A stretch of DNA of 64,000 bases. Source: Escherichia coli (GTDB lineage: Bacteria > Pseudomonadota > Gammaproteobacteria > Enterobacterales > Enterobacteriaceae). The notes beneath the pieces are model-generated. The model was given only the letters and a program-made list of their open reading frames with translations, was not told where the DNA came from and made no database searches. How positions within the stretch are numbered: the first letter of the stretch is position 1; every line of letters starts with the position of its first letter. The DNA is taken from NCBI RefSeq assembly GCF_011045215.1, contig NZ_CP049201.1; one strand, given 5' to 3'. This document shows positions 14,454-50,511 of the stretch, one piece after another. Both the position numbers and the translations under genes were made by a program.

Positions 14454-14646
14454 AGTGCGCAGATCCGGATAGGTGTGTAGATGATGCATGAGCAGAAATG
14501 GGCAATGAAACACGGGCGACTATTTTGCGGCAAAAGAGGCCAGCTGCAAAAGCAGTGCGTGCTTTAAGAGATAAAAAACGTGACACTGTAACCTATTATT
14601 GCCGAATTGCGCGTAATCGCCACTATCCGGCAATATTACGGTGATC

Positions 14647-15261: not shown

Positions 15262-15303
15262 TCCTAACATCCTGAAATGTGCGGGTTGCCCCGCACCAAT
15301 TTG

Positions 15304-16158: not shown

Positions 16159-16159
16159 T

Positions 16160-16777: not shown

Positions 16778-16787
16778 GGGCTACTCC

Positions 16788-24420: not shown

Positions 24421-24625
24421 GGACATAAATCTATTTTATCAATAAGATACGAGGAAGCGTCAGCTGATAAAAGGTACTCTATTTCATCTTTTGTCAACCA
24501 TTCATGGCGAAAATATACGCCTTTTTTTGTGATCACTCCGGCTTTTTTTGATCTTCATACTTGTATGGTAGTAGCTCAGTTGCGTAGATTTCATGCATCA
24601 CGACAAGCGATGCAAGGAATCGAAC

Positions 24626-25840
24626 ATGAAGATCGTAAAGGCTGAAGTTTTTGTTACCTGTCCGGGGCGTAATTTCGTCACATTAAAAATCACCACTAAG
24701 GACGGTATTACGGGCCTTGGGGATGCCACCCTCAATGGACGTGAGCTTTCCGTGGCCTCTTATTTGCAGGATCACCTTTGTCCGCAGCTTATTGGTCGCG
24801 ATGCGCACCGTATCGAAGATATCTGGCAGTTTTTCTATAAAGGTGCTTACTGGCGTCGCGGTCCGGTTACGATGTCGGCCATTTCAGCGGTTGATATGGC
24901 GCTGTGGGATATTAAAGCCAAAGCTGCCAACATGCCGCTTTACCAGTTACTCGGCGGCGCGTCTCGTGAAGGGGTGATGGTTTATTGCCATACCACCGGT
25001 CACAGTATTGATGAAGCTCTGGATGATTATGCCCGTCATCAGGAGCTGGGATTCAAAGCCATCCGCGTGCAGTGCGGCATCCCTGGTATGAAAACCACCT
25101 ACGGCATGTCGAAAGGTAAAGGTCTGGCTTATGAACCCGCAACCAAAGGACAGTGGCCGGAAGAGCAGCTGTGGTCGACGGAGAAATACCTCGATTTCAT
25201 GCCGAAATTGTTTGACGCGGTACGTAACAAGTTTGGTTTTAATGAACATTTGCTGCATGACATGCACCATCGCTTAACGCCTATTGAAGCGGCGCGCTTT
25301 GGTAAAAGCATTGAAGATTATCGCATGTTCTGGATGGAAGACCCGACGCCTGCGGAAAACCAGGAATGCTTCCGTCTCATTCGCCAACATACCGTCACAC
25401 CCATCGCAGTGGGTGAAGTCTTCAACAGCATCTGGGACTGCAAACAACTGATTGAAGAGCAACTCATCGATTATATCCGCACCACGCTGACCCATGCAGG
25501 CGGAATTACCGGTATGCGCCGGATTGCCGATTTTGCTTCGTTGTATCAGGTACGTACTGGCTCACACGGTCCTTCCGATTTGTCACCAGTCTGCATGGCT
25601 GCGGCGCTGCACTTTGATCTGTGGGTCCCCAATTTCGGTGTCCAGGAATACATGGGTTATTCCGAACAAATGCTCGAAGTCTTCCCGCACAACTGGACTT
25701 TCGATAACGGCTATATGCATCCGGGAGACAAACCGGGTCTTGGCATCGAATTAGATGAAAAGCTGGCGGCGAAATATCCCTATGAACCTGCTTATCTACC
25801 AGTCGCACGTCTGGAAGATGGCACGCTGTGGAACTGGTAA
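24626..25840 (+). CDS. rspA: starvation-sensing protein RspA (enolase-superfamily mannonate dehydratase-like)
   Basis: 404 aa from [10 protein letters not shown]...; enolase superfamily. Confidence 0.92.
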
Positions 25841-25851
25841 GGAGTAAGATA

Positions 25852-26871
25852 ATGAAAAGCATATTAATTGAAAAACCGAATCAACTGGCGATTGTCGAAC
25901 GTGAAATACCCACCCCGTCAGCGGGTGAAGTACGAGTAAAAGTGAAACTTGCCGGAATTTGTGGTTCAGATAGCCATATTTATCGTGGGCATAATCCTTT
26001 TGCGAAATATCCGCGCGTCATTGGACATGAATTCTTTGGCGTCATTGATGCGGTGGGTGAAGGTGTGGAAAGCGCCAGAGTCGGTGATCGTGTTGCTGTC
26101 GATCCGGTGGTCAGCTGTGGTCATTGCTATCCGTGCTCAATAGGTAAGCCGAACGTTTGTACGACACTCGCTGTATTAGGTGTGCACGCTGACGGTGGTT
26201 TCAGTGAATATGCTGTGGTTCCGGCAAAAAATGCGTGGAAAATTCCTGAAGCATTGGCCGATCAATATGCGGTAATGATCGAACCTTTTACCATTGCGGC
26301 TAACGTAACCGGTCATGGTCAACCGACTGAAAATGATACCGTTCTGGTTTATGGTGCCGGTCCAATCGGCCTGACGATCGTTCAGGTATTAAAAGGCGTC
26401 TATAACGTTAAAAATGTGATTGTTGCCGATCGCATTGATGAACGACTGGAAAAAGCGAAAGAGAGCGGGGCTGACTGGGTGATTAATAACAGCCAGACAC
26501 CGCTTGGCGAGATTTTCGCTGAAAAAGGCATAAAGCCGACATTAATTATCGATGCGGCTTGTCATCCTTCTATCCTGAAAGAGGCCGTAACGCTGGCTTC
26601 TCCAGCGGCACGTATTGTATTGATGGGCTTCTCCAGTGAACCGTCTGAAGTGATTCAGCAAGGAATTACCGGAAAAGAACTCTCTATTTTCTCTTCACGC
26701 TTAAATGCAAATAAATTCCCGGTCGTTATCGACTGGTTAAGTAAAGGGTTAATTAAACCAGAAAAATTAATTACCCATACGTTTGATTTCCAGCATGTTG
26801 CTGATGCCATTAGTTTATTTGAACAGGATCAAAAACATTGCTGCAAAGTCTTACTCACTTTTTCTGAATAA
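25852..26871 (+). CDS. rspB: zinc-type alcohol dehydrogenase-like starvation-sensing protein RspB
   Basis: 339-aa MDR-family dehydrogenase with GHE zinc motif and NAD-binding GAGPIG. Confidence 0.92.
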   Translation: MKSILIEKPNQLAIVEREIPTPSAGEVRVKVKLAGICGSDSHIYRGHNPFAKYPRVIGHEFFGVIDAVGEGVESARVGDRVAVDPVVSCGHCYPCSIGKPNVCTTLAVLGVHADGGFSEYAVVPAKNAWKIPEALADQYAVMIEPFTIAANVTGHGQPTENDTVLVYGAGPIGLTIVQVLKGVYNVKNVIVADRIDERLEKAKESGADWVINNSQTPLGEIFAEKGIKPTLIIDAACHPSILKEAVTLASPAARIVLMGFSSEPSEVIQQGITGKELSIFSSRLNANKFPVVIDWLSKGLIKPEKLITHTFDFQHVADAISLFEQDQKHCCKVLLTFSE

Positions 26872-26928
26872 TACCAATAACGGCGAGTAAGTAGTACGCA
26901 TCTTACCTCTTTTTTAGAGATAACCATT

Positions 26929-27039
26929 ATGACAATAGAAAAACACGAAAGAAGCACTAAGGATTTGGTGAAAGCAGCGGTATCGGGATGGCTGGGCACT
27001 GCGCTTGAATTTATGGATTTCAAGAGTCATGCGTATTAA
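26929..27039 (+). pseudogene. ydfJ: 5' fragment of MFS transporter gene ydfJ, truncated by prophage insertion
   Basis: encodes MTIEKHERSTKDLVKAAVSGWLGTALEFMDF then runs into a stop after 36 codons where integrase-proximal DNA begins; K-12 ydfJ is known to be split by Qin at this locus. Confidence 0.6.
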
Positions 27040-27058
27040 CTATTTGATAAATATTAAA

Positions 27059-28339
27059 TTAATTTTTCATTGCTTCGTTATGGGGCATGGTTGGGGCAAA
27101 CTCGCTTAACTGTGTATTTAACAAAGCTACCTGTGCATTATTGTTTTCAGACATCCATTTTCCGTATACCTGAAATACCATTTGCGCATCTGCATGGCCC
27201 ATCTGGTTTGCTATAAATGCCGGGTTAGCACCAGCTGTCAGCGACCAGCAGGCATAAGTATGTCTCGACTGATATGATTTTCGATGGCGGAGTCCGGCAC
27301 GTTTTATCGCTGCGTCCCACATCTGCCTTATTGAGTCAACGGTAAAATGGTCACCATAATTTTTTACTCTCGCTGACACTTCAGGTTGAAAAACAAAGGT
27401 GCATTTTTGTTTTTCTGTTCTGCCATACTCTCTGAGGTGAACATCAATGATATGCTCTTTGCTCAGTCTCGTTAATGTCATCTGACTCCGGAGAGCGTCG
27501 ATTGCTGGCTTAATAAGATGAATGACCCGATTGGTTCCCGCCTGTGTTTTTGGTACCGTGAAACGGTCTTTTGCTAAATTTCTCCTGATCATCATTGTTC
27601 CATTTTTCAGATCTATGTCCTCCCATCCAAGTGCACACAGCTCACCAGGGCGAACGCCAGTATAAACAGAAACACACCATAAATTTTTTGCTTGCTGATT
27701 TCTGCACGCATCGATAAGACGGATAAATTCTTCCCGCGAAAGAGGATCCGGAATGGTTCTTGATTCCTTTAATGGCGAGATCCCCTTAAACGGATTATCT
27801 GCCAGGTAACCGTTATCAACACCAAACTGGAACACGGCGTTAAGATTTGTCATGTAATTATTTACAGTTACAGCCGATCTCCCTGGTTGTGTAACAATAT
27901 AGTTACTTTTGGGGGTCTGGTATCCAGTCAGTAGCTCTTTACGAACCTCCAGTAATTTTTCTTTATTAATCGATGAGGCAAGATTTTTTTCACCGATTAT
28001 GCTCAGGATATTTTTGATGACGGCACGGTATGTGTTGAGTGATGTTTTGGCGACTTCAGTTTCTTTCAGTGCCAGAAATTTTTCAGCCAGTTCTTTTATG
28101 GTTAAATCTTGTCGGGCCTCACCAAATTTTTCCAGATTGCGTGAGGAGGGAAACTGTTTTGCATAGTCGAAAACACCAGTTTTTATTGCGTAACAAACAG
28201 AGGAGCGTAGTTCACCTGCAACGCGCCTGTTTTTTGCTGTGTCAGGAACCCCCAGATTTTCCCTGACTCTTACGCCTTTATAAACAAACCAGATACGTAA
28301 TTTCCCTCCATGGTTTTCCACGCCTGTCGGATATTTCAT
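27059..28339 (-). CDS. int: phage integrase, tyrosine recombinase
   Basis: C-terminal catalytic region with R..HxxR..Y arrangement (RHTYACWSL...HADAQMVFQVYGKW); first gene inside the insertion. Confidence 0.9.
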   Translation of the reverse strand: MKYPTGVENHGGKLRIWFVYKGVRVRENLGVPDTAKNRRVAGELRSSVCYAIKTGVFDYAKQFPSSRNLEKFGEARQDLTIKELAEKFLALKETEVAKTSLNTYRAVIKNILSIIGEKNLASSINKEKLLEVRKELLTGYQTPKSNYIVTQPGRSAVTVNNYMTNLNAVFQFGVDNGYLADNPFKGISPLKESRTIPDPLSREEFIRLIDACRNQQAKNLWCVSVYTGVRPGELCALGWEDIDLKNGTMMIRRNLAKDRFTVPKTQAGTNRVIHLIKPAIDALRSQMTLTRLSKEHIIDVHLREYGRTEKQKCTFVFQPEVSARVKNYGDHFTVDSIRQMWDAAIKRAGLRHRKSYQSRHTYACWSLTAGANPAFIANQMGHADAQMVFQVYGKWMSENNNAQVALLNTQLSEFAPTMPHNEAMKN

Positions 28340-28373
28340 TTCAACTTCTCTCATTAGTTAGTGTGGCTTTTAG

Positions 28374-28625
28374 TCAAGTAAGATGACGTCTTGGTCTCGC
28401 TGATGCCTGGCGCTCAATCCAGCGATCAATTTCTTCCAGGTTGTAAAAGCATGGACTGTTATCCCATGGCATACCGTCATGAGCGACATGCTTATATTCC
28501 CTTCCTTCCATAAACGATTTTTCCCGGGCCTTTTTTAACGTACCTTTTTTTATTCCTTTCAGCGCAATTAACTGCTCTTCGGATACCCATTTGCCGGGAG
28601 AGACAATCATGATTACTTCGCTCAT
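28374..28625 (-). CDS. xis: excisionase-like protein
   Basis: 83-aa ORF immediately upstream of int on the same strand; small basic DNA-binding-type protein. Confidence 0.65.
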   Translation of the reverse strand: MSEVIMIVSPGKWVSEEQLIALKGIKKGTLKKAREKSFMEGREYKHVAHDGMPWDNSPCFYNLEEIDRWIERQASARPRRHLT

Positions 28626-28697
28626 CGATTTCTTTATCTCTTACATCAGACGAGCGCCGGTTGCAGAATACCAGTCACAACCGGCGACAGTTGAACA

Positions 28698-31169
28698 TTA
28701 AGAATCAGCCTGACTCGGGATCAGTTTTTGCCAGATAACTGAAACGTATTTTGCCTGGTAACGGGCGTCATCAAGTGCATTATGGCGCTCACCTTCGAAT
28801 GGAATAGCCGTTCTGGGATCGAAGTCTATGGCTTTCCCCAGCTCAACGATTGTGCGTACATCGCGATCGTTGTAGTAACGCCACGGGCAGGGGATCCCCT
28901 GCCGTTCGTATGAACGGCGCAAAATCGTGTTGTCGAAGTTGGCTCCATTTCCCCAGACCTGAACAAAAAATTCACCGGAGTTTTCGTCGATAAATTCCCG
29001 CAATTGTAACAGTGCATCATCTAACGGGATTTCATCGGTCATAATGGCAGATTGCGCTTCGCGTGATTGCTTAAGCCACCATTTAATGGTGTCCCGATCA
29101 ATGACTCCGCCAGCAGTTTCCAGATCGATAGTCTTACTAAATTCCGGTCCCATATCTCCGGTTTGCGGATCGAAAAATATTGCACCTATTGAGATGATCG
29201 GGGCATCAGGATTTTTTCCCATGGTTTCAAGGTCGATCATTAGATGGTCACACGTCCTGCTGGTGGATGTGATTTCGTGATGACCGTTCACCTTAATTGA
29301 GTGATCTGCCGTCTCGCCAGTTTCATTATCGCTATTGTGATGCTGATTGCCGCCAGTGTTCTCCTTGTGTGGATGTTCAGCGCCTTCCATTTCCTCCGGA
29401 TCATCTTCCTGAACTTCAACCTGATACTCTTCATCGAATGTTTCTTGGTATGTTGCGTCGCCCATCACCGCGCCACAATCAGGGCAGTTGCCGCCGCCGG
29501 TCTGACCGCAGGCGGTGCAGACTTTTTCCACTTCCTGTTGCGCCACTGGTTCAGGCTGTTTCGTTTCTGGCTCGTTTTGTAACGCATTTGGGCTGTTTTG
29601 TTCCGCTTTTTGGTAGTTCCGTTCCGATTCATGCTGGTTCTGGTTCACAGAATCGCGGGTCTGGATCCCCTTAACCCATTTCGGATCATTCGGGTCACTA
29701 ATCCCTTCAACAAATTCACCACGTGATGCAGCAAGCAACTTATCGGCGTCAGGCTGGCTGATATTGGCTGCCTGCATAATTTTGTTTACTTCGTCAGCGG
29801 TAACTTTTATCGGCTCTGGTTGTTCTGAATCTTCAGCGGTATCTACATTTTGCGGTAAGCCCGTGTATGTGCCATTTTTTCGGGCAAAATATTCTTCTTT
29901 TGTGATTTCAGTGGCGCCAGCAGCCAGTGCCTTATCCAGACCAGAAAGTTTGTTTGCGCGACCGTATTTTTCTCCGTCCTTATCTGCGAAGAGGAAATAG
30001 AACGGCCCCTCACGCTCTACAGATGGTTCAGCTTCCGGCGCGGTTTCATTTTTTGGGATATCAGATACCTCAGTTTCCACTGCATCAGTTTGTGTTTCTG
30101 ATGACTGGAGAACATCAACAGTGCCCAGGTCTGTTTCTTCATTCTCAAACACGCCCTTTGTCGTCAGGTATTCGCAGATATATTTGTTCAGTGCTACGGG
30201 ATCTTTGTGAATGTCGATCGGACGCTCACGGACAAGGCCAAAAATAGTTTGGCGGTCGTAGCGAAGGGCATCAGGCTGTTTGCGCATTGATGCCGAGATA
30301 CGCTTCCAGTCTTCGCGGTCGTTGTCGATAACTTCTTTTTTTGCCCAGCGATGGATGCTGCCGTCAATGTTTCCGGCATCCACATCACCAGGCCAGAGAG
30401 CGTAGGCCAGTTCGTCATCCAGTGTTTTCCATGTCTGCTTGTATTCGCGATGAATGGCAGCAATGACCGGGCTGATTTTTCCTGTTGAATTTTCAGTGTA
30501 CTGTTGATTGGCTCTGGCGCGGGCGAGATCAACAACAGACGTGTATTTTCCGGTTTCCTTGCGTTCACCTTCGCGACGTTTTTTCCAGATGCGCATCTCT
30601 GTCTGAATTTCGGGCCATTTAGCACCAGGAATACATTTATGCTTAACCCACCCAATGGCGTGCAACTTAAGCTCCGGATACATGGCGTTAACTTCTGGCA
30701 TTTTCATCAACGCTTCAACGATATGTCCGTCGAATGTTGCCATGTCTTCCTGCAACAATTCCTGTGTGCTAATAACCATATCAACGGTGATGTTTTCACA
30801 TGTGTCGAACTTAACCATGACAGCGTTCTGTACTTCAGGGGCCAGCTTGTCAAAAGTGACGTTCATCGGATCGGATTCAGTCTCAACCGGGACAAAAGAA
30901 GCAGACTCCTCATCCCAGCGGTTTTCCTGCATATATTCAGCATCCCATGAATCGAGGGCAGGGCGGGGTATGCCAGGTTTATCCTCGCAGATAATAAATT
31001 TATAAGCGCAGTCCTGAGCAGCCGGATAATGTTCCAGGAACTGCCAGTGAAATTTTGCTCGAGCACGGCGTTCGTCGCCAGCTTCAATGGCTGTGGCTAC
31101 AGCCACCGCGCCTTCTCCCCTTGTTGCCAGTTCGTCAGGAATAGCGGCGCAAATAAAGACTTTACTCAT
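28698..31169 (-). CDS. large phage exonuclease with C-terminal DnaQ/DEDDh-like 3'-5' exonuclease domain
   Basis: 823 aa; C-terminal motifs DLETMG, GNGANFD and HNALDDA consistent with DEDDh; long acidic low-complexity central region. Confidence 0.75.
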   Translation of the reverse strand: MSKVFICAAIPDELATRGEGAVAVATAIEAGDERRARAKFHWQFLEHYPAAQDCAYKFIICEDKPGIPRPALDSWDAEYMQENRWDEESASFVPVETESDPMNVTFDKLAPEVQNAVMVKFDTCENITVDMVISTQELLQEDMATFDGHIVEALMKMPEVNAMYPELKLHAIGWVKHKCIPGAKWPEIQTEMRIWKKRREGERKETGKYTSVVDLARARANQQYTENSTGKISPVIAAIHREYKQTWKTLDDELAYALWPGDVDAGNIDGSIHRWAKKEVIDNDREDWKRISASMRKQPDALRYDRQTIFGLVRERPIDIHKDPVALNKYICEYLTTKGVFENEETDLGTVDVLQSSETQTDAVETEVSDIPKNETAPEAEPSVEREGPFYFLFADKDGEKYGRANKLSGLDKALAAGATEITKEEYFARKNGTYTGLPQNVDTAEDSEQPEPIKVTADEVNKIMQAANISQPDADKLLAASRGEFVEGISDPNDPKWVKGIQTRDSVNQNQHESERNYQKAEQNSPNALQNEPETKQPEPVAQQEVEKVCTACGQTGGGNCPDCGAVMGDATYQETFDEEYQVEVQEDDPEEMEGAEHPHKENTGGNQHHNSDNETGETADHSIKVNGHHEITSTSRTCDHLMIDLETMGKNPDAPIISIGAIFFDPQTGDMGPEFSKTIDLETAGGVIDRDTIKWWLKQSREAQSAIMTDEIPLDDALLQLREFIDENSGEFFVQVWGNGANFDNTILRRSYERQGIPCPWRYYNDRDVRTIVELGKAIDFDPRTAIPFEGERHNALDDARYQAKYVSVIWQKLIPSQADS

Positions 31170-31262
31170 TTTGTTTGAACCTCATGACAGATTTAAGGAT
31201 GAACAAATCCCTGCCATTGCTGGCATATAAGAATGAAACCGGATATTTATTACGGAACTGTT

Positions 31263-31454
31263 TTAAAGACCTGCCGGGATTTCGATATTATCCTGGTGAA
31301 TAACTTTATCGACCGGGTAACAGTTACCGGGAATTTTCTGTTCGGTTGCTGCAGTCATACACTCCTGCATTGTCCTGTGAACACTGACTGCAATATCAAC
31401 TGGCTCTCCGGAAACAAGAAAAACTGTCAGAACAAGCGCAAATGCTGAATTCAT
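31263..31454 (-). CDS. ydfD: YdfD (63-aa Qin-type small lysis-associated protein)
   Basis: 63 aa from internal ATG with AAGGA RBS; N-terminal hydrophobic segment; overlaps dicB stop. Confidence 0.75.
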   Translation of the reverse strand: MNSAFALVLTVFLVSGEPVDIAVSVHRTMQECMTAATEQKIPGNCYPVDKVIHQDNIEIPAGL

Positions 31455-31639
31455 TGTGCACATCCTTTTGGCATCAGACGTAAACGAGCCAGCATTGAAA
31501 CAATGCATATTTTATTTAATAGCTCCCGTTCTTGTTTTCTCTTGTTAATGGCATCTTCAGTAAATACAGGGTTACTGATAGTGACACCAATTTCAAAACA
31601 ACCTTCAGACGTATTAACGTTTGGTAATAACGTTTTCAT
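31451..31639 (-). CDS. dicB: cell division inhibitor DicB
   Basis: 62 aa (MKTLLPNVNTSEGCFEIGV...LMPKGCAQ) with GAGGA RBS; directly downstream of dicF. Confidence 0.85.
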   Translation of the reverse strand: MKTLLPNVNTSEGCFEIGVTISNPVFTEDAINKRKQERELLNKICIVSMLARLRLMPKGCAQ

Positions 31640-31807
31640 TATCGCGTCCTCAACAATGAATTTTGTGATGCAGTGCCTGGTGCCTCCAGGTGACGTTAAC
31701 CAGTTAACAATTAACGCCGGATACAGAGAATCCACCCATAACACTGTTTTTGGTTTTAACTGTTCCGCGTGCGCTTAGCCGCATTCACCGCATCACAAAA
31801 TTCACTT

Positions 31808-31865
31808 TAAAAACGGCGGCAGAGCAGTCACGGAGTAAAACTGATACCGCCAAACGTCACCAGAA
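31808..31865 (-). ncRNA. dicF: DicF small regulatory RNA
   Basis: minus-strand sequence UUUCUGGUGACGUUUGGCGGUAUCAGUUUUACUCCGUGACUGCUCUGCCGCC followed by a U-run matches DicF (53 nt plus terminator tail). Confidence 0.88.
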
Positions 31866-32125
31866 AATTGATAACAGAGGGCGTTGCAGCGGGGTTGTCA
31901 CTTAAGCGTATGGTCAACCTGACAACTCGGTGTCCTCAACGGGGAAGGAATAACCCCGCCATACTTACCGCCGCGCCATTTCGCGGATTGCCACAACCGG
32001 AAGCGCACGGTCGAATTAAATTTACCGACACCGTACAGTTAGACGAATTTCGCCGTGCGCTTTCGTGTTGTGTGCCTGCTTTTAACCACGTCAGGCGAGG
32101 TGGTATCCTTAAAATCACCACAGTT

Positions 32126-32701
32126 TTAAGGATTCATTAAGCAATGTCGCAACCACCAATAAATCCGCTTAAGAACATGAAAATTGATTACTGGTATAAA
32201 GCGCTTACAGTTGTTGGCGCTGCGTTGTTTGTCTTTAATGGAACGTCTTTTTTTGACAGATATCCCGTTGTTCCATTGGGTTTTTTGTCCTCCGGCATCT
32301 TTTTTATTGGTTTGGGGGAGTGGATTAATCACCCTCTCAAAGTGAGATTTATTGGTCCTGGGGTTTGGACTCGTGGATATAATCGTTCTTCGTGCGCACT
32401 CGGCATCATCTTCGACATACTTGGTTGTTTCCTGATTGTTACAGGAGTCGTCAAGTTCTTCTGATGTAAAACCGCAAATGGGGCACGTAACGGGAATTTT
32501 GAAAAGCGTTTCTCCGGGTTCCAGAACAAAATTTTCTGCGGTCTGATTTTGCTTCTCATATTTGTGCTCCGCGTCATTGTGAGAGCACATTCTTATTCTG
32601 AGTGCCTGTTTAAACTCACTGAAGCTGAGAGCTTCTTCGCCTTCGGCAAGGCCTTCGAAGTATTCTTCGTAAGCCTTTTCCATGATTGTGTCGAAATCCA
32701 T
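32126..32701 (-). CDS. hypothetical protein in the ydfB/ydfC position, possible zinc-ribbon
   Basis: 191-aa ORF translationally coupled to ydfA (AGGTGA RBS, 1-nt gap); CPICGF...C motif; C-terminal third is low-complexity and overlaps an antisense 106-aa ORF, so the true extent is uncertain. Confidence 0.5.
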   Translation of the reverse strand: MDFDTIMEKAYEEYFEGLAEGEEALSFSEFKQALRIRMCSHNDAEHKYEKQNQTAENFVLEPGETLFKIPVTCPICGFTSEELDDSCNNQETTKYVEDDAECARRTIISTSPNPRTNKSHFERVINPLPQTNKKDAGGQKTQWNNGISVKKRRSIKDKQRSANNCKRFIPVINFHVLKRIYWWLRHCLMNP

Positions 32702-32702
32702 A

Positions 32703-32858
32703 TCACTCACCTGAGTTTCTTTCCAGCCAGCGACGGGCACCATTTTCGGTTTTAAACGTTTTGCTTTTGGTATACGTCATCGCGGTGAACGTGCCGTCCT
32801 GGTTGGGGAACACGCCACATACCAGAGATTCGCTGTTGCCAAGATCGATAGTATCCAT
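32703..32858 (-). CDS. ydfA: YdfA (51-aa DicA-operon protein)
   Basis: 51 aa from internal ATG with GAGG RBS; first gene downstream of dicA. Confidence 0.75.
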   Translation of the reverse strand: MDTIDLGNSESLVCGVFPNQDGTFTAMTYTKSKTFKTENGARRWLERNSGE

Positions 32859-33026
32859 GCTGACCTCATTTCCCCTTAACGCCTGGGTAGCGGAACTGTT
32901 TGCTGAGAACACCGTGCGGTGTCTTGATGGAAATTAATTTAGAATAATCTAACATGATAGGCAAGTGTTTTTTGTTAGGTTAGTCTAACAAAAAGAGTGA
33001 GCGCAACTAATCACTTGAAAAGAATG

Positions 33027-33434
33027 TTATTTTATTGATTTATTTTTACGCGCTTTAAGCATTTCTTCGAAGAGTTTGTTGAAGTTTTCTACTCTTGCGC
33101 GCATTTCAGACAGCAAGGCTTCCTGCTCGGAAGATGGAAGAGCATCGAATAATTCGATCAATTCTTTGTGGTTGGGAGTTAGCTCTGTTTCCACATGAAG
33201 TTCTTGTGCAGGCACTGGTGCCTTGTCTTCATCACCAAACATTAGCCATGTAGGTGAGCACTTCAGAGCATCCGCTAAAGCAAACAATCGTTTTCCGACT
33301 GGCTGGGTTTCGTCTCTTTCCCATTGTGAAATTGTGACGTGAGCAACTCCAGCGAGGCGCGCAGCTTCTCGTTGTGTTAAGCGTAATTCTTTTCGTCGCG
33401 CCAGAACTCGCTGGCCTAGGGTTCTTGTATCCAT
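33027..33434 (-). CDS. dicA: HTH XRE-family repressor DicA
   Basis: 135 aa with N-terminal HTH (LTQREAARLAGVAHVTISQWERDETQP); divergent from dicC. Confidence 0.88.
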   Translation of the reverse strand: MDTRTLGQRVLARRKELRLTQREAARLAGVAHVTISQWERDETQPVGKRLFALADALKCSPTWLMFGDEDKAPVPAQELHVETELTPNHKELIELFDALPSSEQEALLSEMRARVENFNKLFEEMLKARKNKSIK

Positions 33435-33511
33435 AGTTAGGTAATTCTAATTTTTCTTGACTTAGGTATCCCGCGCACAATAATGTTAGAAAAGTCTAAC
33501 AAGAGGGGGCT

Positions 33512-33742
33512 TTGATGCTTAAAGTTGACGCAATTACTTTTTTTGGCAGCAAAACAAAGCTTGCCAATGCCGCAGGAGTGAGACTGGCAAGTGTTGCTGC
33601 TTGGGGGATACTGGTTCCTGAAGGTCGCGCGATGCGTCTACAGGAGGCATCTGGCGGGGAGCTTCAGTATGATCCCAAAGTTTATGACGAATATCGTAAG
33701 ACGAAGCGGACGGGGCGGTTGAACAATGAAAATCACTCCTGA
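33512..33742 (+). CDS. dicC: Cro-like regulator DicC
   Basis: 76 aa transcribed divergently from dicA across a short operator-containing gap. Confidence 0.85.
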   Translation: MMLKVDAITFFGSKTKLANAAGVRLASVAAWGILVPEGRAMRLQEASGGELQYDPKVYDEYRKTKRTGRLNNENHS

Positions 33743-34247
33743 ACAGGCTCGTGAGGCTCTGGATGCCTGGATATGTCGACCAGGAATGACACAGGAGCAG
33801 GCGACGATATTAATCACTGAAGCATTCTGGGCTTTGAAAGAGCGCCCGAACATCGATGTTCAGCGTGTCACATATGAAGGTGGCGCGGTTGATCAGCGAG
33901 CGCTTAGCGTTAATCGAGTGAAGATATTCGAACGCTGGAAGGCTATCGACACCAGGGATAAGCGTGAAAAGTTCACAGCGCTAGTGCCTGCAATTATGGA
34001 GGCTATCCGGATTAGTGATTTCAGGTTGTATCGTGAGATCAGTGATGGAAAAAGTATTACGTACATGATCGCCGGGTTAAATAAAGAATATGGCGATGTG
34101 GTGGAATCTGGACTGCTTTTTGCAGATCCTGCCGTTGTAGATCGTGAAACTGACGAACTTATAGAAAAAGCAATTGCTTTCAAGCTTGCGTATCGACAGC
34201 AATACCAACAAAAAGCTGGATGGAATTATGAGTCTTCTTTTTGCTGA
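33726..34247 (+). CDS. hypothetical early-region protein (YdaT-like position)
   Basis: 173-aa ORF overlapping the dicC stop; no recognisable catalytic motif. Confidence 0.65.
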   Translation: MKITPEQAREALDAWICRPGMTQEQATILITEAFWALKERPNIDVQRVTYEGGAVDQRALSVNRVKIFERWKAIDTRDKREKFTALVPAIMEAIRISDFRLYREISDGKSITYMIAGLNKEYGDVVESGLLFADPAVVDRETDELIEKAIAFKLAYRQQYQQKAGWNYESSFC

Positions 34248-35193
34248 ACGCCCACTGGTTATAAACACGCAGCTGGCAATGAAAATCGGCTTAAACGAAG
34301 CCATTGTTTTGCAACAACTGCACTACTGGTTGAGAGATACCAACTCCGGTATGGAATGTGATGGTGTTCGCTGGATTTATAACACAACGGAACAATGGCT
34401 GGAACAGTTCCCATTCTGGTCAGAGTCAACGTTAAAACGCGCGTTTGCAAGTCTGAAAACGCTGGGGCTTTTGCGTTGTGAAAAGCTCAATAAATCAAAG
34501 CGCGATATGACCAATTTCTACACGATCAACTATGGGAGCGAGCTTTTAGATGGTGGCAAATTGAACGAATCCATCGGTTCAAAATGCGCCGCTCCATCAG
34601 GTCAAAATGACACGATGGAAGAGGTCAAAATGAAACGCTCCATTGGTTCAAAACGACCCAATGTCATCGGGTCAAAATGGCCTGATGATCTTACAGAGAA
34701 TACAACAGAGATTACTACAGAGAATAAAAACACTTTTCGTCCGGAAGCTTCGCAACCGGACCCGCAGACGACTGAACAGGATTTTTTAACCCGGAACCCC
34801 GACGCGGTTGTGTTTAGTGTGAAAAAACGCCAGTGGGGTAGCAGGGAGGATTTGGCGTGTGCGCAGTGGATTTGGGGGCGGATCGTGAACCTTTACGAAC
34901 AGGCTGCCAGCGACGATGGAGAGATCATGCGACCAAAAGAGCCTAACTGGACAGCCTGGGCCAATGACGTGCGCACAATGCGGATGCTGGATGGCAGAAG
35001 CCACAGACAAATTTGCGAAATGTTTGGTCGGGTACAGCGGGATCCATTCTGGGTAAAAAACATCATGAGCCCGTCAAAACTCCGCGAAAAATGGGACGAA
35101 CTGGTCATCCGCCTGGGACGTTCACCTGTACAGCGTTGTGTGAATCATATTTCTGAACCGGATACAGAAATTCCGCCTGGTTTCAGAGGATAA
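34228..35193 (+). CDS. replication initiator, lambda O-like
   Basis: 321 aa with N-terminal DNA-binding-type region; gene contains five regularly spaced iterons, as in lambda O/ori. Confidence 0.75.
   Translation: MSLLFAERPLVINTQLAMKIGLNEAIVLQQLHYWLRDTNSGMECDGVRWIYNTTEQWLEQFPFWSESTLKRAFASLKTLGLLRCEKLNKSKRDMTNFYTINYGSELLDGGKLNESIGSKCAAPSGQNDTMEEVKMKRSIGSKRPNVIGSKWPDDLTENTTEITTENKNTFRPEASQPDPQTTEQDFLTRNPDAVVFSVKKRQWGSREDLACAQWIWGRIVNLYEQAASDDGEIMRPKEPNWTAWANDVRTMRMLDGRSHRQICEMFGRVQRDPFWVKNIMSPSKLREKWDELVIRLGRSPVQRCVNHISEPDTEIPPGFRG
34575..34680. repeat. phage replication origin iterons (5 direct repeats of GGTCAAAATG-like motif, about 23-bp period)
   Basis: copies at about 34576, 34600, 34623, 34645 and 34669 inside the O-like gene, producing repeated IGSK peptide motifs. 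Confidence 0.75.
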
Positions 35194-35233
35194 GTTTTGA
35201 TTTCAGGTCATGAGGTAATTTTAAGGGGGACTT

Positions 35234-35635
35234 GTGGCAAAAGTTTTTACACAAGAAGAGCGGGAAAAAATTAAAGGGCAGGTGGTGGAACTCGTGCGCC
35301 AGAGCGGTCGTGAGACGTTACGGCAACTGGAAGCTAAAACAGGTGCGACTAGATATCTGATGAGCGTTCTTGCCAGAGAGCTGGTAGCCAGTGGCGATGT
35401 ATACAACTCCGGCTACGGGTTATTCCCGTCTGAACAGGCGCGTAAGGACTGGCAAAACGCCCGCAAAAAACTATCGAGGGCAAAGGTGAAGAAAACAGCT
35501 GTGGTTGATCCGGACCTTATCTGGTCGTTACCTGATGGAGAAATACGTCGCTACGACAGTCGCCTAAACATAATCTGTCGCGAGTGCCGGATGAGTGAAG
35601 TTATGCAGCGCATACTGGCATTTTATCAGGGATAA
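35234..35635 (+). CDS. hypothetical phage protein
   Basis: 133-aa ORF with GTG start preceded by AAGGGGGA RBS; follows the O-like gene. Confidence 0.65.
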   Translation: MAKVFTQEEREKIKGQVVELVRQSGRETLRQLEAKTGATRYLMSVLARELVASGDVYNSGYGLFPSEQARKDWQNARKKLSRAKVKKTAVVDPDLIWSLPDGEIRRYDSRLNIICRECRMSEVMQRILAFYQG

Positions 35636-35831
35636 TGTTAGGTATTTTAGACGTTACTAGATTAAAAAGCATTAGTTCAGGAGTGAATTGACATTCTCAT
35701 TTTTCATGGCACAGGGTAGATCTGGCGTGGTTGTCCGCTTTGTGCCAGAAGCGGACATAGCAGGTGCCAGATGCATTTGTTATTCTTCATTGAATTGAGC
35801 AGTATCCTTAACAGGAACTCTGAATACATAA

Positions 35832-36470
35832 ATGAAGATGAAAAACATGTCTGAAGTGTTGACCCAAGAAAAGCTTATTTTTGTTGCCCAGAGACTAAAG
35901 GCCCTCGCGCAGTCAGGCCTGACCTATTCAAAAGACGTCTTTGACAAGGAACGCTATGAAGCCTTGCGTGAAATTGCCGCTGGACTGCTGAGTTCGCAGT
36001 TTGATATTAGCCGCAATGATTTGTTTCATGTATCGGAAACGGGTTACGCGACGCCCAAAACAGATGTGCGTGCGTTTATCCTGCGTAATAATCGTATTCT
36101 GATGGTGAAAGAGGCTGCAGATGGATTATGGAGTCTTCCTGGCGGATGGGCAGATGTTGGAGATACACCTTCTGAAGCTGTGCGTCGAGAGGTCGAAGAA
36201 GAAACCGGATTAAAAGTCAGAGTGACTAAACTATTGGGAGTTTGGGATCGTAATCTTCACGGCCATCCGCCTTTACCCTGGCATGTTTACAAGCTGATTT
36301 TTCTCTGTGAAGAAGTAGGTGGCAGCCTGTCAATCAGCCATGAGTCACTCGATGCTGATTTTTTTGATGTCAACGACCTGCCTGAATTGTCGCTTTCAAG
36401 AATTGTGCCTGAGCAGATTGCTGTCAGCCTGAGAGTAGCGAAAGGTGATGAAAAAACATGGTTTGATTAA
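35832..36470 (+). CDS. Nudix hydrolase with N-terminal extension domain
   Basis: 212 aa; Nudix-box core GGWADVGDTPSEAVRREVEEETGL. Confidence 0.85.
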   Translation: MKMKNMSEVLTQEKLIFVAQRLKALAQSGLTYSKDVFDKERYEALREIAAGLLSSQFDISRNDLFHVSETGYATPKTDVRAFILRNNRILMVKEAADGLWSLPGGWADVGDTPSEAVRREVEEETGLKVRVTKLLGVWDRNLHGHPPLPWHVYKLIFLCEEVGGSLSISHESLDADFFDVNDLPELSLSRIVPEQIAVSLRVAKGDEKTWFD

Positions 36471-36493
36471 CTTTCTTCTGCAACCATTAAGGA

Positions 36494-37138
36494 ATGGCAA
36501 TGATATTCAACGCTAAGGGTTTTTTATTCGATATGGACGGTACGCTGGTTGATTCAACAGCCGTAGTGGAAAACGTCTGGAGAGATTTTTGTGCAGAATA
36601 CGGTCTTGATTCTCAGGCTGTGATTGCTTACGCACACGGGCGGCAAACGATTGATACACTAACGCATTTTATTGGTGCAGGTGAGAAAACCAATAAAATC
36701 GCGGCCTCACTCGAAGAGGTTGAAATCAACACGACAGAAGGCGTTACTGAAGTAAAAGGGGCCGCTGCACTCTTATCAAAACTGCCACCGGATAGCTGGG
36801 CACTTGTCACTTCTGCAGGCAGAATGCTTGCCGAAAACAGGATGAAAGCGGCTAATCTCCCCTTACCCAGAGTAATGGTGTGTGCAGAAGATGTAATGAC
36901 GGGAAAACCAAGTCCCGAGGGTTACATCAAAGCAGCTTTGGCTTTGGGCCTTGAGCCTGGTGAATGCGTGGTATTTGAGGATGCATCTGCGGGTATAAAA
37001 GCAGGGCTGGCAAGTGGAGCTTCGGTAATAGCTGTTCAGCCTGACGCTCTGGGATCATCTGAAGCCCATGCCGTCAGCGAACTGTCTGACATTATGGTCA
37101 AGATTTCCGGAGAACGTTTCAATATCATCTGTGGTTAA
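36494..37138 (+). CDS. HAD-superfamily phosphatase (beta-phosphoglucomutase-like subfamily)
   Basis: 214 aa; motif I FDMDGTLVDS, motif III lysine region and downstream acidic motif (EDASAG); 24 bp after the Nudix gene. Confidence 0.85.
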   Translation: MAMIFNAKGFLFDMDGTLVDSTAVVENVWRDFCAEYGLDSQAVIAYAHGRQTIDTLTHFIGAGEKTNKIAASLEEVEINTTEGVTEVKGAAALLSKLPPDSWALVTSAGRMLAENRMKAANLPLPRVMVCAEDVMTGKPSPEGYIKAALALGLEPGECVVFEDASAGIKAGLASGASVIAVQPDALGSSEAHAVSELSDIMVKISGERFNIICG

Positions 37139-37386
37139 TCACGTTACACAATACGCATCAATGGACGCTGAGTAGTTCGCGAGTTTTAAACTTCCAACGT
37201 CCGCTTTTCGCTCAAAGCGGACTAGAAGGTTAGCTTGTATCGGACTTTGCGTATTAAATGACTAGTGGTTGAGCCCCATTTCCACAGAAAAAATCAGAGA
37301 AACTATACCCAATAGTTGTATTGAATCACTGACGAGACAGCCTCATATTCATCAGGACTGGTGTACGTCCAATACAGGAGGTTGTG

Positions 37387-37476
37387 GTGCTGGTTCTCAA
37401 ATGTGCGCTGGCTATTACGGCTGTAATGGCGATTTATTGTCTTGCTATTGTTCTTATGGATCGCCTTTCTGACTGA
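37387..37476 (+). CDS. candidate small hydrophobic membrane peptide (about 29 aa), possible type I toxin
   Basis: consensus AGGAGG at 37376-37381, 5 nt before GTG; encodes (M)LVLKCALAITAVMAIYCLAIVLMDRLSD, one TM helix with charged tail; a different frame of the same region gives the 67-aa Cys/Gly-rich ORF in the track. Confidence 0.3.
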   Translation: MLVLKCALAITAVMAIYCLAIVLMDRLSD

Positions 37477-37687
37477 TTTCATATTGGCGAGGTAACGGTA
37501 GTTAAGTAGAATGGCTGCGGGTGCTTGAGGCTATCTGCCTCGGGCATGAACACCAACGGCAGATAGAGAAAAGCCCCAGTTAACATTACGCGTCCTGCAA
37601 GACGCTTAACATTAATCTGAGGCCAATTTCATGCTAGACACATGTAGGTTAGCCTCTTACGTGCCGAAAGGCAAGGAGAAGCAGGCT

Positions 37688-37843
37688 ATGAAGCAGCAAA
37701 AGGCGATGTTAATCGCCCTGATCGTCATCTGTTTAACCGTCATAGTGACGGCACTGGTAACGAGGAAAGACCTCTGCGAGGTACGAATCCGAACCGGCCA
37801 GACGGAGGTCGCTGTCTTCACAGCTTACGAACCTGAGGAGTAA
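37688..37843 (+). CDS. hok: Hok/Gef-family type I toxin
   Basis: 51 aa MKQQKAMLIALIVICLTVIVTALVTRKDLCEVRIRTGQTEVAVFTAYEPEE, typical Hok; in-frame upstream ATG at 37631 could act as a mok-like leader. Confidence 0.88.
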   Translation: MKQQKAMLIALIVICLTVIVTALVTRKDLCEVRIRTGQTEVAVFTAYEPEE

Positions 37844-37911
37844 GAGACCCGGCGAGGGATAAATCCCTCGCCACCTCTGATGTGGCAGGCATCCTCAACG
37901 CACCCGCACTT

Positions 37912-37940
37912 AACCCGCTTCGGCGGGTTTTTGTTTTTAT
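37912..37940 (+). terminator. rho-independent terminator of hok transcript
   Basis: stem cccgc/gcggg with ttcg loop followed by tttttgttttt. Confidence 0.75.
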
Positions 37941-38059
37941 TTTCAACGCGTTTGAAGTTCTGGACGGTGCCGGAATAGAATCAAAAATACTTAAGTAGCG
38001 CGCAGGGATAAGAGGGATGGTCCCTTAAAGGGGAGAGCTAATTATCCGGAAGGATTCTG

Positions 38060-38311
38060 ATGATGAACATCGAAGAACTGCGTAAAATTTTTTGTGAAGA
38101 TGGCCTCTATGCTGTGTGCGTTGAAAATGGAAACATTGTTAGTCATTACCGCATTCTGTGTTTGCGAAAGAATGGGGCTGCGTTAATTAATTTTATGGAT
38201 GCTCGGGTCACGGACGGATTTATCTTGCGCGAAGGTGAGTTTGTCACTTCATTACAGGCACTGAAAGAGATCGGAATAAAAGCAGGCTTTTCAGCTTTTG
38301 CAGAAGAATAA
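38060..38311 (+). CDS. small phage protein in the Rem position (83 aa)
   Basis: 83-aa ORF between hok and the DUF968 gene, same order as hokD-rem-ydfU in Qin. Confidence 0.6.
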   Translation: MMNIEELRKIFCEDGLYAVCVENGNIVSHYRILCLRKNGAALINFMDARVTDGFILREGEFVTSLQALKEIGIKAGFSAFAEE

Positions 38312-38377
38312 ACTCATCTACAATCTTGCGCGGGGCTGAACTCCCGCTGAGTAACACCGTGCCACCGGAGAAAACCG

Positions 38378-38656
38378 ATGGCACGCAACGTAAAATATTA
38401 CAATTCTGATAATTCGCCCGTTCTTGCCTGCACGCACGAGCGGTATTCTCACGCATTCAAGTCTGAATGGTTCCAGCACCCTCCATGCACTGAAGAGCAG
38501 GCTGAATGGATAATTCAGTGTTACCGCAGGCGCGGATACGAGGTTAAGAAAGCCCTTAGTCTCGACTACCGTCACTGGATAATCTCAGTCAGATTGCCTT
38601 ACTCCGAACGCCCACCGCGTCCGTCCCGTACATTCCAGCAACGCATCTGGAGGTAA
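38378..38656 (+). CDS. hypothetical phage protein
   Basis: 92-aa ORF abutting the start of the DUF968 gene. Confidence 0.55.
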   Translation: MARNVKYYNSDNSPVLACTHERYSHAFKSEWFQHPPCTEEQAEWIIQCYRRRGYEVKKALSLDYRHWIISVRLPYSERPPRPSRTFQQRIWR

Positions 38657-38657
38657 C

Positions 38658-39707
38658 GTGCGGGTATTACTTCGACCTGTTCTGGTACCGGAACTCGGGC
38701 TGGTGGTCGTTAAGCCGGGCCGTGAATCCATGCCGGTATTCCACAATACCCGGGTACTGGTGGAGCCGGAACCGAAAAGCATGCGTAATCTGCCGTCCGG
38801 GATCGTTCCTGCCGTTCGCCAGCCGCTGGTGGAAGACAAAACATTGCTGCCGTTTTTCAGTAATGCACGGGTAATTCGTGCTGCTGGTGGTGCTGGTGCA
38901 TTGTCTGACTGGCTGTTGCGCCATATTAAATCCTGCCAGTGGCCACACGGCGATTATCATCACAGCGAAACCGTTATTCACCGTTATGGTACCGGCGCAA
39001 TGGTGTTGTGCTGGCACTGCGACAACCAGCTGCGTGACCAGACATCCGAATCACTCGAGCAACTTGCTCATCAAAACCTGTCAGCATGGATGATTGACGT
39101 CATCGGTCACGCAATAAGCGGTACGCAGGAGCGTGAATTATCTCTGGCTGAATTATCCTGGTGGGCGGTCCGCAATCAGGTGGCGGACGCGCTACCGGAA
39201 GCGGTATTACGTCGTTCGCTGGGGTTGCGTGCGGAAAAAATCCGCTCCATGTACCGTGAAAGCGACATCGTACCGGGAGAGCAGACCGCCACCAGCATAC
39301 TGAAACAGCGCACAAAAAATCTTGCGCCGCTGCCTCACGCCCACCAGCAACAGAACCCACCACAGGAAAAGACGGTGGTCAGCATTGCCGTTGATCCTGA
39401 GTCTCCGGAATCTTTCATGAAACGACCTAAACGTCGCCGCTGGGTTAATGAAAAGTACACGCGCTGGGTTAAGACACAGCCGTGTGCATGTTGTGGAAAG
39501 CCCGCTGATGATCCCCACCACCTGATAGGCCACGGTCAGGGGGGAATGGGTACAAAAGCGCATGACCTCTTTGTGTTGCCTTTGTGCAGAAAGCATCACG
39601 ACGAGCTGCATGCGGATACCGTGGCATTTGAAGAGAAGTATGGCTCCCAGCTGGAGCTGATATTTCGTTTTATCGATCGTGCGCTGGCAATTGGCGTGCT
39701 GGCCTGA
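38658..39707 (+). CDS. ydfU: YdfU-like DUF968 protein with C-terminal HNH-like zinc motif
   Basis: 349 aa; C-terminal CACCGK...HHLIGHGQGG...CRKHHDELH; immediately upstream of Q as in Qin. Confidence 0.8.
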   Translation: MRVLLRPVLVPELGLVVVKPGRESMPVFHNTRVLVEPEPKSMRNLPSGIVPAVRQPLVEDKTLLPFFSNARVIRAAGGAGALSDWLLRHIKSCQWPHGDYHHSETVIHRYGTGAMVLCWHCDNQLRDQTSESLEQLAHQNLSAWMIDVIGHAISGTQERELSLAELSWWAVRNQVADALPEAVLRRSLGLRAEKIRSMYRESDIVPGEQTATSILKQRTKNLAPLPHAHQQQNPPQEKTVVSIAVDPESPESFMKRPKRRRWVNEKYTRWVKTQPCACCGKPADDPHHLIGHGQGGMGTKAHDLFVLPLCRKHHDELHADTVAFEEKYGSQLELIFRFIDRALAIGVLA

Positions 39708-39724
39708 TTTTGTGGAGAAAGTTG

Positions 39725-40069
39725 ATGCGTGATATGTATGAAGTTTTAGACCGCTGGGGAGCGTGGGCTGCAGCAGATAACAGTGGTGTGGACTGGCAGC
39801 CGATAGCAGCAGGCTTTAAGGGGCTTTTACCTCATGGTAAAAAAATACGCCTTCAGTGTGATGATGATGAAGGCATCATGATAGACGGCTGTGTTGCCCG
39901 CCTGTGTAAGTATAAACCAGACGAATATGAGCTGATCATTGCTCACTTCGTTATAGGTATTTCACTGCGTTCTATTGCGAAGAGACGCAGATGCTCAGAT
40001 GGAACAATCCGGAAGCAATTGCAGACTGCGTTAGGTTTCATTAATGGGGTTATGTACATGCTCAAGTAA
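39725..40069 (+). CDS. Q: late-gene antiterminator Q (933W/82-type)
   Basis: 114 aa from ATG with GGAG RBS (MRDMYEVLDRWGAWAA...), N-terminus resembles small Q antiterminators. Confidence 0.8.
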   Translation: MRDMYEVLDRWGAWAAADNSGVDWQPIAAGFKGLLPHGKKIRLQCDDDEGIMIDGCVARLCKYKPDEYELIIAHFVIGISLRSIAKRRRCSDGTIRKQLQTALGFINGVMYMLK

Positions 40070-42451: not shown

Positions 42452-42550
42452 GCGGTTAAGCTAACAATTGTAAAGAGCATAATAAATTACTAACGCGTAC
42501 GCAAAAACTATCATAATCTGTTAAGAGTGGTTACTTCGCCACACAGCTTA

Positions 42551-44169: not shown

Positions 44170-44385
44170 ATGAAATCCATGGATAAGTTAACAACGGGTG
44201 TCGCCTATGGCACCTCAGCAGGTAGTGCCGGGTACTGGTTTTTACAGTTGCTCGATAAAGTCACGCCCTCACAGTGGGCGGCAATAGGTGTGCTGGGTAG
44301 TCTGGTATTTGGCTTGCTGACGTATCTGACAAACCTTTATTTCAAGATTAAAGAAGATAAGCGTAAGGCTGCGAGAGGTGAATAA
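44170..44385 (+). CDS. phage holin
   Basis: 71-aa two-TM protein with charged C-terminus, directly upstream of lysozyme. Confidence 0.85.
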
Positions 44386-45346: not shown

Positions 45347-45367
45347 CTGGAGAAAAAACACGAATCT

Positions 45368-50498: not shown

Positions 50499-50511
50499 TT
50501 CCTGGTTCAGG

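Follow-up and report, generated by a model that had tools for sequence, protein, structure and literature searches.

The window, the whole 64,000-nt stretch of DNA that was analysed, is co-linear with the E. coli chromosome over positions 1-25248 (98.8% identity). Just beyond the host gene rspB, the reading frame of ydfJ breaks off and a lambdoid prophage begins, occupying the remainder of the sequence. The features of the locus are as follows.

25852-26871, plus strand: rspB, the left-flanking host gene (ADH_N and ADH_zinc_N domains; annotation in matching genomes)
26929-27039, plus strand: ydfJ', comprising ydfJ codons 1-31 (26929-27021), five phage codons (KSHAY) and a stop (translation and alignment)
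27011-27021, unstranded: attL core TTATGGATTTC (exact attB/attP identity in a four-way att comparison)
27022-27150, unstranded: attL P' arm (TGGGGCA pair and a second core-region copy, from a repeat search on the HannyBb attP)
27059-28354, minus strand: intact IntQ-type tyrosine integrase, 431 aa (Arm-DNA-bind_2 and Phage_integrase domains)
28374-28625, minus strand: excisionase of the DUF1233 family (Pfam E 1.6e-31; 83/83 residues identical to HannyBb Xis)
28698-31169, minus strand: exonuclease, 823 aa (Rv2179c-like 3'-5' exoribonuclease domain; 817/823 residues identical to HannyBb)
31263-31865, minus strand: ydfD, dicB and the DicF sRNA, a cell-division inhibition block (98.8% to K-12 Qin; Ec-U11 annotation)
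33027-35635, unstranded: immunity and replication region (Pfam; about 85% DNA identity to K-12 dicA/dicC)
37519-40069, plus strand: sok/hokD, rem, ydfU (DUF968) and the Q antiterminator (92% to Qin; Pfam DUF968 and Phage_antitermQ)
44170-45346, plus strand: lysis cassette of holin, lysozyme and Rz (Phage_lysozyme domain; Ec-U11 annotation)
46185-52470, plus strand: non-lambda head and packaging module (Pfam; 96-98% DNA identity to phi458, mEp460, cdtI and Ayreon)
53160-58703, plus strand: tail shaft, with diverged homologues of lambda Z, U, V, G, T and H (26-55% aa identity; tape-measure domains)
58703-64000, plus strand: M, L, K, I and J of the tail tip (DNA 89% identical to lambda 12965-18002)

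The junction between ydfJ and the prophage

The first-pass annotation had placed the left prophage junction within ydfJ, next to rspB, at the locus that carries the defective prophage Qin in K-12, and had read about 31 codons of ydfJ before the divergence. Alignment to an uninterrupted ydfJ (strain 1916D18) bears this out: identity runs from the ATG at 26929 to 27021, exactly 31 codons (MTIEKHERSTKDLVKAAVSGWLGTALEFMDF), and divergence begins at 27022. From there onward the sequence is the int-proximal DNA of K-12 Qin, with 2 differences in 211 aligned nucleotides, such that the junction sequence as well as the locus is shared. The junction is thus real and the left end of the prophage was correctly recognised; the insertion explains the pseudogene status of ydfJ here. 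The 3' part of ydfJ is absent from the window, which stops inside J. A scan of 26750-27250 returned no promoters or terminators, and we therefore claim no position for a ydfJ promoter or an int terminator. A tRNA scan found no tRNA gene, and the integrase is therefore not tRNA-targeting.

The attachment core and its arms

To define the core we compared attL from the window, attB from the intact ydfJ of 1916D18, attP from the free phage HannyBb, and attR from K-12 and Ec-U11. These sites fit the four forms B-core-P', B-core-B', P-core-P' and P-core-B', with an 11-bp core, TTATGGATTTC, that occurs once in the window, contains ydfJ codon 29 (ATG) and is followed on its 3' side by one mismatch and then AG. 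The earlier placement of attL near 27020-27040 was essentially right, with the core lying about 10 bp further left, and the left boundary of the prophage is now fixed at 27011-27021. An attR carrying the core and the 3' part of ydfJ is present in K-12 and Ec-U11; the direct repeat of the core is demonstrated in these relatives only, because the prophage's own attR, whose form is predicted, lies beyond the window.

The heptamer TGGGGCA occurs twice in direct orientation in the P' arm, at 27081-27087 and, 11 bp on, at 27092-27098, and pairs of this heptamer are present in both arms of attP. The P' arm also contains a second copy of the attP core region, matching at 18/21 positions (27129-27149) and overlapping the terminal part of int. 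Over the 18-kb phage locus as a whole, TGGGRCA is not enriched (7 observed versus 4.8 expected), but 4 of the 7 heptamers in those 18 kb sit within 225 bp of the core (Poisson P about 5e-7); only the clustering at attP, not the locus-wide number, is significant. The integrase has an N-terminal arm-binding domain as well as the catalytic Phage_integrase domain, as would a heterobivalent, lambda-Int-like tyrosine recombinase, and the TGGGGCA heptamers clustered at attP are candidate arm-type integrase sites.

Early genes of the Qin type

The integrase shares 429/431 residues with HannyBb Int and 99% DNA identity with the retained part of K-12 intQ, whereas lambda Int has no detectable similarity to it. 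The Qin-type early genes dicB, DicF, ydfD, hokD/sok, rem and ydfU are all present (92-99% by BLAST), with DicF at 31814-31865 (Rfam 72.5 bits), sok at 115 bits in Rfam, and the Q antiterminator at 39710-40069. The immunity and replication genes comprise a DicA-like HTH repressor (33027-33434, minus strand), Cro/DicC-like and YdaT-like genes, an O-like replication gene (34% aa identity to lambda O) and a DUF977 gene. Between Q and the lysis genes sits a candidate defence cassette of a YejK-like NAP and a membrane protein; it has no match in PADLOC v2, and in NCBIfam its paired DS1 matches score under the curated cut-offs.

A late region close to lambda only at the tail tip

The late region had been described as lambda-like, with a J nearly identical to lambda J at its N-terminus. 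The statement about J is accurate: J starts at 61095, is visible through residue 968 with coding continuing beyond the window end, and is identical to lambda J at 785 of its first 800 residues (98%), with 96-100% identity per 100-residue bin up to residue 800 and 36-69% beyond. The wider description holds for L, K, I and J (93%, 96%, 79% and 89.7% aa identity, respectively) but not for the head module or the other tail genes, where M (56%), Z, U and V fall at 50-56% and G and H at 26-33%. Rz is 77% identical to its lambda counterpart. The head module encodes a DUF1441 small terminase, a GpA-type large terminase, a lambda-family portal and a fusion of a ClpP-like protease to the major capsid protein; terminase A and portal B match lambda weakly (24.6% and 21%), and lambda Nu1, W, C, D, E, FI and FII have no match in the window at E<=1e-3. 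By contrast, positions 45001-64000 align to phages of the mEp460/cdtI/phi458 type at 96.4-98.3% DNA identity over 91-97% of that stretch. Judged by its sequence, the late module is of this type from terminase through J.

Relatives of the prophage and the origin of its modules

K-12 Qin has the same core at the same ydfJ site, and its int, exo 3' part, ydfD, dicB and DicF are about 99% identical to those of the window, falling to 92% in rem/ydfU and about 85% in the dicA/dicC region. It differs in being only 20.5 kb long, with int and exo disrupted by IS2 (exo surviving as a truncated copy, against the full 823 aa here), without replication genes, and with its virion genes deleted except nohA, stfQ' and tfaQ, whereas the window holds at least 37 kb of intact genes. 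Closer overall are HannyBb (PP925841), mEp460_ev081, Tritos and the Ec-U11 ydfJ prophage, which have the same integrase, Xis and attP as the window. The three free lambdoid phages among them are 95-98% identical to it in the early region and 96-97% in the late region. The Ec-U11 prophage (38.9 kb, at the ydfJ site between two cores) is 98.7-99.7% identical in three blocks. What separates the HannyBb/Ec-U11 group from the window is the immunity region (about 32030-33604) and the cargo between Q and a methylase gene (about 39832-42519). Lambda shares the overall lambdoid gene order, but it integrates between gal and bio rather than in ydfJ, the window integrase is of the Arm-DNA-bind_2 type and the window capsid a ClpP-protease/capsid fusion, and lambda Int, Xis, N, cI, cro, P, Q, S and R have no similarity in the window at E<=1e-3.

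These comparisons bear on the first-pass proposal that the prophage is a recombinant between a Qin-type early region and a lambda-type virion module. Two findings favour it: identity to Qin reaches about 99% across the early block, and lambda DNA is matched at 89% between the 3' end of H and J, with J at 98% protein identity over its first 800 residues. A distinctive recombinant of this kind is nevertheless improbable. Lambda aligns to only about 19% of the prophage DNA in the window, the head genes of lambda are missing, and the whole late module is 96-98% identical to mEp460/cdtI/phi458-type phages; furthermore, HannyBb, mEp460_ev081 and Tritos each carry both the int/early region and the late module in a single genome, so that free phages already combine the two. 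The contrast between Qin and lambda itself fails, because Qin's own small terminase gene, nohA, is of the lambda Nu1 type (98% identical), in place of the DUF1441 small terminase found here. The two att arms of Qin align to HannyBb at 98.5-99.5%. From these sequences, the best reading of Qin is as a relative of the HannyBb phage type that has undergone internal deletion and would therefore define no separate early-region type. A better label for the element, which occupies the Qin site, is a lambdoid phage of the HannyBb/mEp460 type that is close to lambda in its tail tip only. It is an ordinary lambdoid mosaic: int and the early region are of the Qin/HannyBb type, the immunity allele is its own, the head is of the mEp460/cdtI type, and the tail joins a lambda-like but diverged shaft to an L-K-I-J tip close to lambda.

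Site-specific integration and the state of the prophage

Positions 26929-28625 are almost certainly the attL end of a lambdoid prophage integrated site-specifically into ydfJ, at the Qin or 'PPydfJ' site. In this model, the IntQ-type tyrosine integrase, with its N-terminal arm-binding domain, would recombine phage attP with host attB, strand exchange taking place within the shared core TTATGGATTTC at ydfJ codons 28-31. On the left this leaves attL, made up of the promoter and first 31 codons of ydfJ, then the core, then a phage P' arm overlapping the 3' end of int. The expected attR, 2-9 kb past the window end, would carry the P arm, TTATGGATTTC and CAGTTATATTCGCTCGG, the last being the remainder of ydfJ from codon 32 on. 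Because the core includes codon 29 (ATG), the attR side would hold a promoter-less ydfJ lacking 28 codons. We considered whether the phage supplies an in-frame N-terminus for ydfJ at attR and rejected this on reading the sequence, as the first ATG met upstream, within the P arm, does not share the ydfJ frame.

It is exceedingly improbable that the junction is instead an assembly artefact or a rearrangement that was not site-specific. A 60-nt junction probe, counted at >=80% coverage, is found in 2,704 of 5,426 complete E. coli genomes and is therefore not a chance match; the identical junction thus recurs in independent complete genomes, and it agrees exactly with the attP of free phages that have been sequenced. 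A less remote alternative, though one we consider doubtful, accepts site-specific integration but sees in the element a defective, grounded remnant of the K-12 Qin kind, with the same junction and no capacity for excision or particle production. Decay is common among elements at this site: the K-12 element has an IS2-truncated int and has largely lost its virion genes, the element of B4103-1 is 15 kb long with ydfJ deleted, and J is truncated in the closest relative, Ec-U11. Frequent mutations of intQ have, moreover, been reported (PMC6379469). Against it, all genes visible in the 37 kb within the window are full-length (int, xis, exo, repressor, O, Q, lysis, terminase, portal, capsid and tail genes, and J through residue 968), and the Int, Xis and Exo proteins share 99-100% of their residues with those of a free phage. 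We favour integration of a phage whose Int and Xis are presumably active and which is presumably complete to the right. B4103-1 offers the best junction match, but its deleted ydfJ makes this remnant unusable as a model of the right end.

A bolder and tentative extension, which we regard as unlikely on present evidence, is that the prophage is a complete, inducible 'live Qin'; the 18/21 core copy within the 3' end of int could, in addition, be a functional secondary integrase site. The particular mosaic brings together early genes of the IntQ/DicB kind, a DicA-like immunity allele of its own, a head of the mEp460 type, the lambda-close L-J tail tip, and the candidate defence cassette of YejK-like NAP and membrane protein. 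The whole combination occurs in none of the complete E. coli genomes in the collection. Ec-U11 comes closest, and among the records compared it alone reaches at least 80% coverage of the first 25 kb (85%).

Prevalence and published accounts of the site

With the junction present in half of complete E. coli genomes, and an empty ydfJ site in 2,011 of the same 5,426, the observation is correct but ordinary, and its significance beyond correct annotation is small. The ydfJ site, the logic of the core and a prevalence of about 50% in E. coli are already published. Qin has been placed at the 5' end of ydfJ with 28 codons removed, and prophages of 11-97 kb have been reported at the Qin locus in 48% of 638 strains (PMC6379469). 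Nakamura et al. 2021 (PMC8112680) describe prophages at ydfJ in many strains, K-12 included, and derive a ydfJ att of 18-19 bp from attP, attB, attL and attR. That length is consistent with TGAATT(T)ATGGATTTC(C/A)AG around the 11-bp core. The PPydfJ prophages of STEC described there resemble the one studied here in being lambda-like phages in ydfJ; nested attB sites and loci for type III effectors (nleC/nleG) are features of that STEC group.

Left junction and attachment core

The host flank is co-linear with the E. coli chromosome over 1-25248 (ydgI, pntAB, ynfEFGH, rspA; 98.8%), and a tRNA scan found no tRNA gene in the window. The features around the junction are:

24593-25840, + strand, rspA
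ending at 26871, + strand, rspB
27059-28354, - strand, integrase ORF, 431 aa (Arm-DNA-bind_2 and Phage_integrase domains)
28374-28625, excisionase ORF, 83 aa (DUF1233)

Translated from the ATG at 26929, the frame reads MTIEKHERSTKDLVKAAVSGWLGTALEFMDF-KSHAY-stop. Alignment with the intact ydfJ of strain 1916D18 (annotated 'MHS family MFS transporter YdfJ', 455 aa) showed the window to be identical up to 27021, which makes exactly 31 codons, and no longer related from 27022. There the window continues as integrase-proximal DNA of Qin, the cryptic K-12 prophage (two differences in a 211-nt aligned stretch), and the match of several sequenced free phages begins exactly at the same nucleotide. The first-pass annotation, which had read some 31 codons of ydfJ followed by integrase-proximal DNA and had named the Qin locus as the insertion site, is confirmed on both points; the K-12 attL has a like structure.

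As that annotation had suggested, we defined the core against an uninterrupted ydfJ, comparing four att sites with the free lambdoid phage HannyBb (PP925841) taken as attP:

attL (window, K-12, Ec-U11): ydfJ 5' part, core, P' arm
attR (K-12, Ec-U11): P arm, core, ydfJ 3' part
attP (HannyBb): P arm, core, P' arm
attB (1916D18): uninterrupted ydfJ

All four share an exact 11-mer, TTATGGATTTC, followed on its 3' side by one mismatch (C in attB, A in attP) and then AG; published att sites at ydfJ, defined from attP, attB, attL and attR, are 18-19 bp long (PMC8112680). The 11-mer occurs once in the window, at 27011-27021, so the earlier placement of attL near 27020-27040 was essentially right and its exact position is now refined. 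Because the core contains the ATG of ydfJ codon 29, the attR-side gene is usually described as being without 28 codons (PMC6379469). The ydfJ 3' part was not found in the window, and attR therefore lies beyond it; from core-to-core distances of 20,469 bp in K-12 and 38,910 bp in Ec-U11 (the strain with the closest prophage at ydfJ), and from the 45.3-kb HannyBb genome, we expect it roughly 2-9 kb past 64000.

The integrase, excisionase and 823-aa exonuclease match those of HannyBb at 429/431, 83/83 and 817/823 residues, and protein comparison detected no similarity to lambda Int in the window. TGGGGCA-type heptamers form two direct pairs in attP, one in each arm (P, P') with 11-bp spacing, and the P' pair falls within the last codons of int (27081-27087 and 27092-27098). 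Of seven copies across the 18-kb locus, four cluster no more than 225 bp from the core (Poisson about 5e-7), and we read them as candidate arm-type sites. The last codons of int also hold ACCTGTGCATTATTGTTTTCA (27129-27149), which is separated from the core by 127 bp and is an 18/21 second copy of the attP core region ACCTGTGAATTATGGATTTCA; by a rough estimate such pairs arise by chance about 0.002 times per 700 bp. It may be either a relic or a secondary integrase site.

This junction is known from earlier work, and it is very common. Among 5,426 complete genomes of E. coli, a 60-nt probe with the break at its midpoint was found in 2,704 (at least 80% coverage) and the matching empty-site probe in 2,011. 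The stretch 26000-29000, which begins inside rspB, takes in ydfJ', int and xis and reaches into the exo 3' end, was present at at least 80% coverage in 2,204. Published work agrees: ydfJ commonly harbours prophages, K-12 included (PMC8112680), and Qin-locus prophages of 11-97 kb occur in 48% of 638 strains (PMC6379469).

Relationship to Qin and lambda

The first-pass annotation also described a recombinant between a Qin-type early region and a lambda-like late region. Alignment to both, a check that it had proposed for the whole prophage, yielded DNA matches to lambda in three regions of the window only: 58565-63591, from the end of H through J (89%), Rz (84%) and the Z-U-V stretch (66%). Protein identities to lambda were:

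K, 96%
L, 93%
J, residues 1-940, 89.7%
I, 79%
Z, U, V, M, 50-56%
G, H, 26-33%
A, B, 21-25%

Nu1, W, C, D, E, FI and FII had no protein match in the window. The lambda-like description thus holds only for the tail tip (L, K, I, J), and the head and other tail genes are diverged or unmatched. By Pfam, the small terminase of the head module is a DUF1441 protein, the other terminase is of GpA type, the portal belongs to the lambda family and the capsid is fused to a ClpP protease. Identity to phi458, vB_EcoS-569R4, Ayreon, mEp460 and cdtI is 96-98% for the late region as a whole. The near-identity claimed for the J N-terminus stands, at 96-100% per 100-residue bin up to residue 800. Past about residue 800 (about 63495-64000) identity drops from ~97% to 36-69%, a mosaic joint within J, and the receptor-binding C-terminus lies outside the window.

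Qin matches the window at 99% DNA identity over 25678-28218 (rspB to int), 98.8% over 30403-32030 (exo 3' part, ydfD, dicB, DicF), 85-86% around the repressor, 92% over 37674-39719 (rem, ydfU) and 86% in a short holin stretch. RNA and repressor features here are:

31814-31865, DicF (Rfam)
33027-33434, DicA-like HTH repressor
37519-37693, sok (Rfam)

Three observations undo the recombinant label. HannyBb, mEp460_ev081 and Tritos each carry the window's int and early region together with its late module; both Qin arms match HannyBb (99.5% and 98.5%); and the Qin nohA product and lambda Nu1 share 98.3% identity across 176 residues, which places Qin's lost packaging module closer to lambda than the window's own. 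On these sequence comparisons Qin is best read as an internally deleted relative of a HannyBb-type phage. The window element belongs to that family too, in a fuller form, and setting 'Qin-early' against 'lambda-late' is not meaningful. All genes visible in the window are full-length, with the element's right end outside it.

Immunity region and accessory genes

The Ec-U11 prophage (NZ_CM192138), at the same site, is 99.3% (24749-32030), 98.7% (33604-39832) and 99.66% (42519-63281) identical to the window; among complete genomes, no other reaches 80% coverage of the first 25 kb. The two differ in the immunity region and in the slot that separates Q from the methylase. The former (32030-33604) either aligns at only ~85% to K-12 Qin, Ec-U11 and HannyBb or does not align, against 96-99% in its flanks, and by sequence is a distinct immunity allele. 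The latter holds different genes in Ec-U11; in the window it holds a two-gene cassette (40062-42451, - strand) between the Q antiterminator and the DNA methylase. Accessory genes in the window include:

35832-37138, + strand, NUDIX hydrolase, 212 aa (Nudix_N and NUDIX; weak PADLOC match to candidate PDC-S07, E 6.6e-10), beside a HAD-family sugar-phosphatase-like protein, 214 aa
41285-42451, - strand, YejK/NA37-family nucleoid-associated protein (NAP), 388 aa
43051-44103, + strand, N6/N4 DNA methyltransferase, 350 aa (PADLOC Type II MTase model, E 4e-151)

The NAP gene is overlapped by that of its 408-aa partner, which has hydrophobic C-terminal segments (about 287-330 and 381-405) and no Pfam match. 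The cassette gave no PADLOC v2 match. Its paired NCBIfam matches, to DS1_1 ('nucleoid-associated anti-phage protein') and DS1_2 ('anti-phage protein'), have an E of about 1e-28, but their scores of about 100 bits fall below the cut-offs, which exceed 315. The cassette resembles defence operons of a NAP and an effector that recent work has reported. These are a YejK-domain system, validated in DefensePredictor (PMC13092281), and 'PANGU' type II, in which the NAP is accompanied by a transmembrane effector (bioRxiv 10.64898/2026.04.06.716658). The methyltransferase sits between Q and holin with no restriction gene seen adjacent. The NUDIX/HAD pair, shared with Ec-U11, lies in the nin-equivalent region past the replication genes. 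At the attR-proximal end of the Ec-U11 prophage (38226-40439 of that locus, L008), genes for manganese catalase, ferritin-like, YciE/YciF and con-10 stress proteins adjoin a truncated J and are read as stress-protection cargo.
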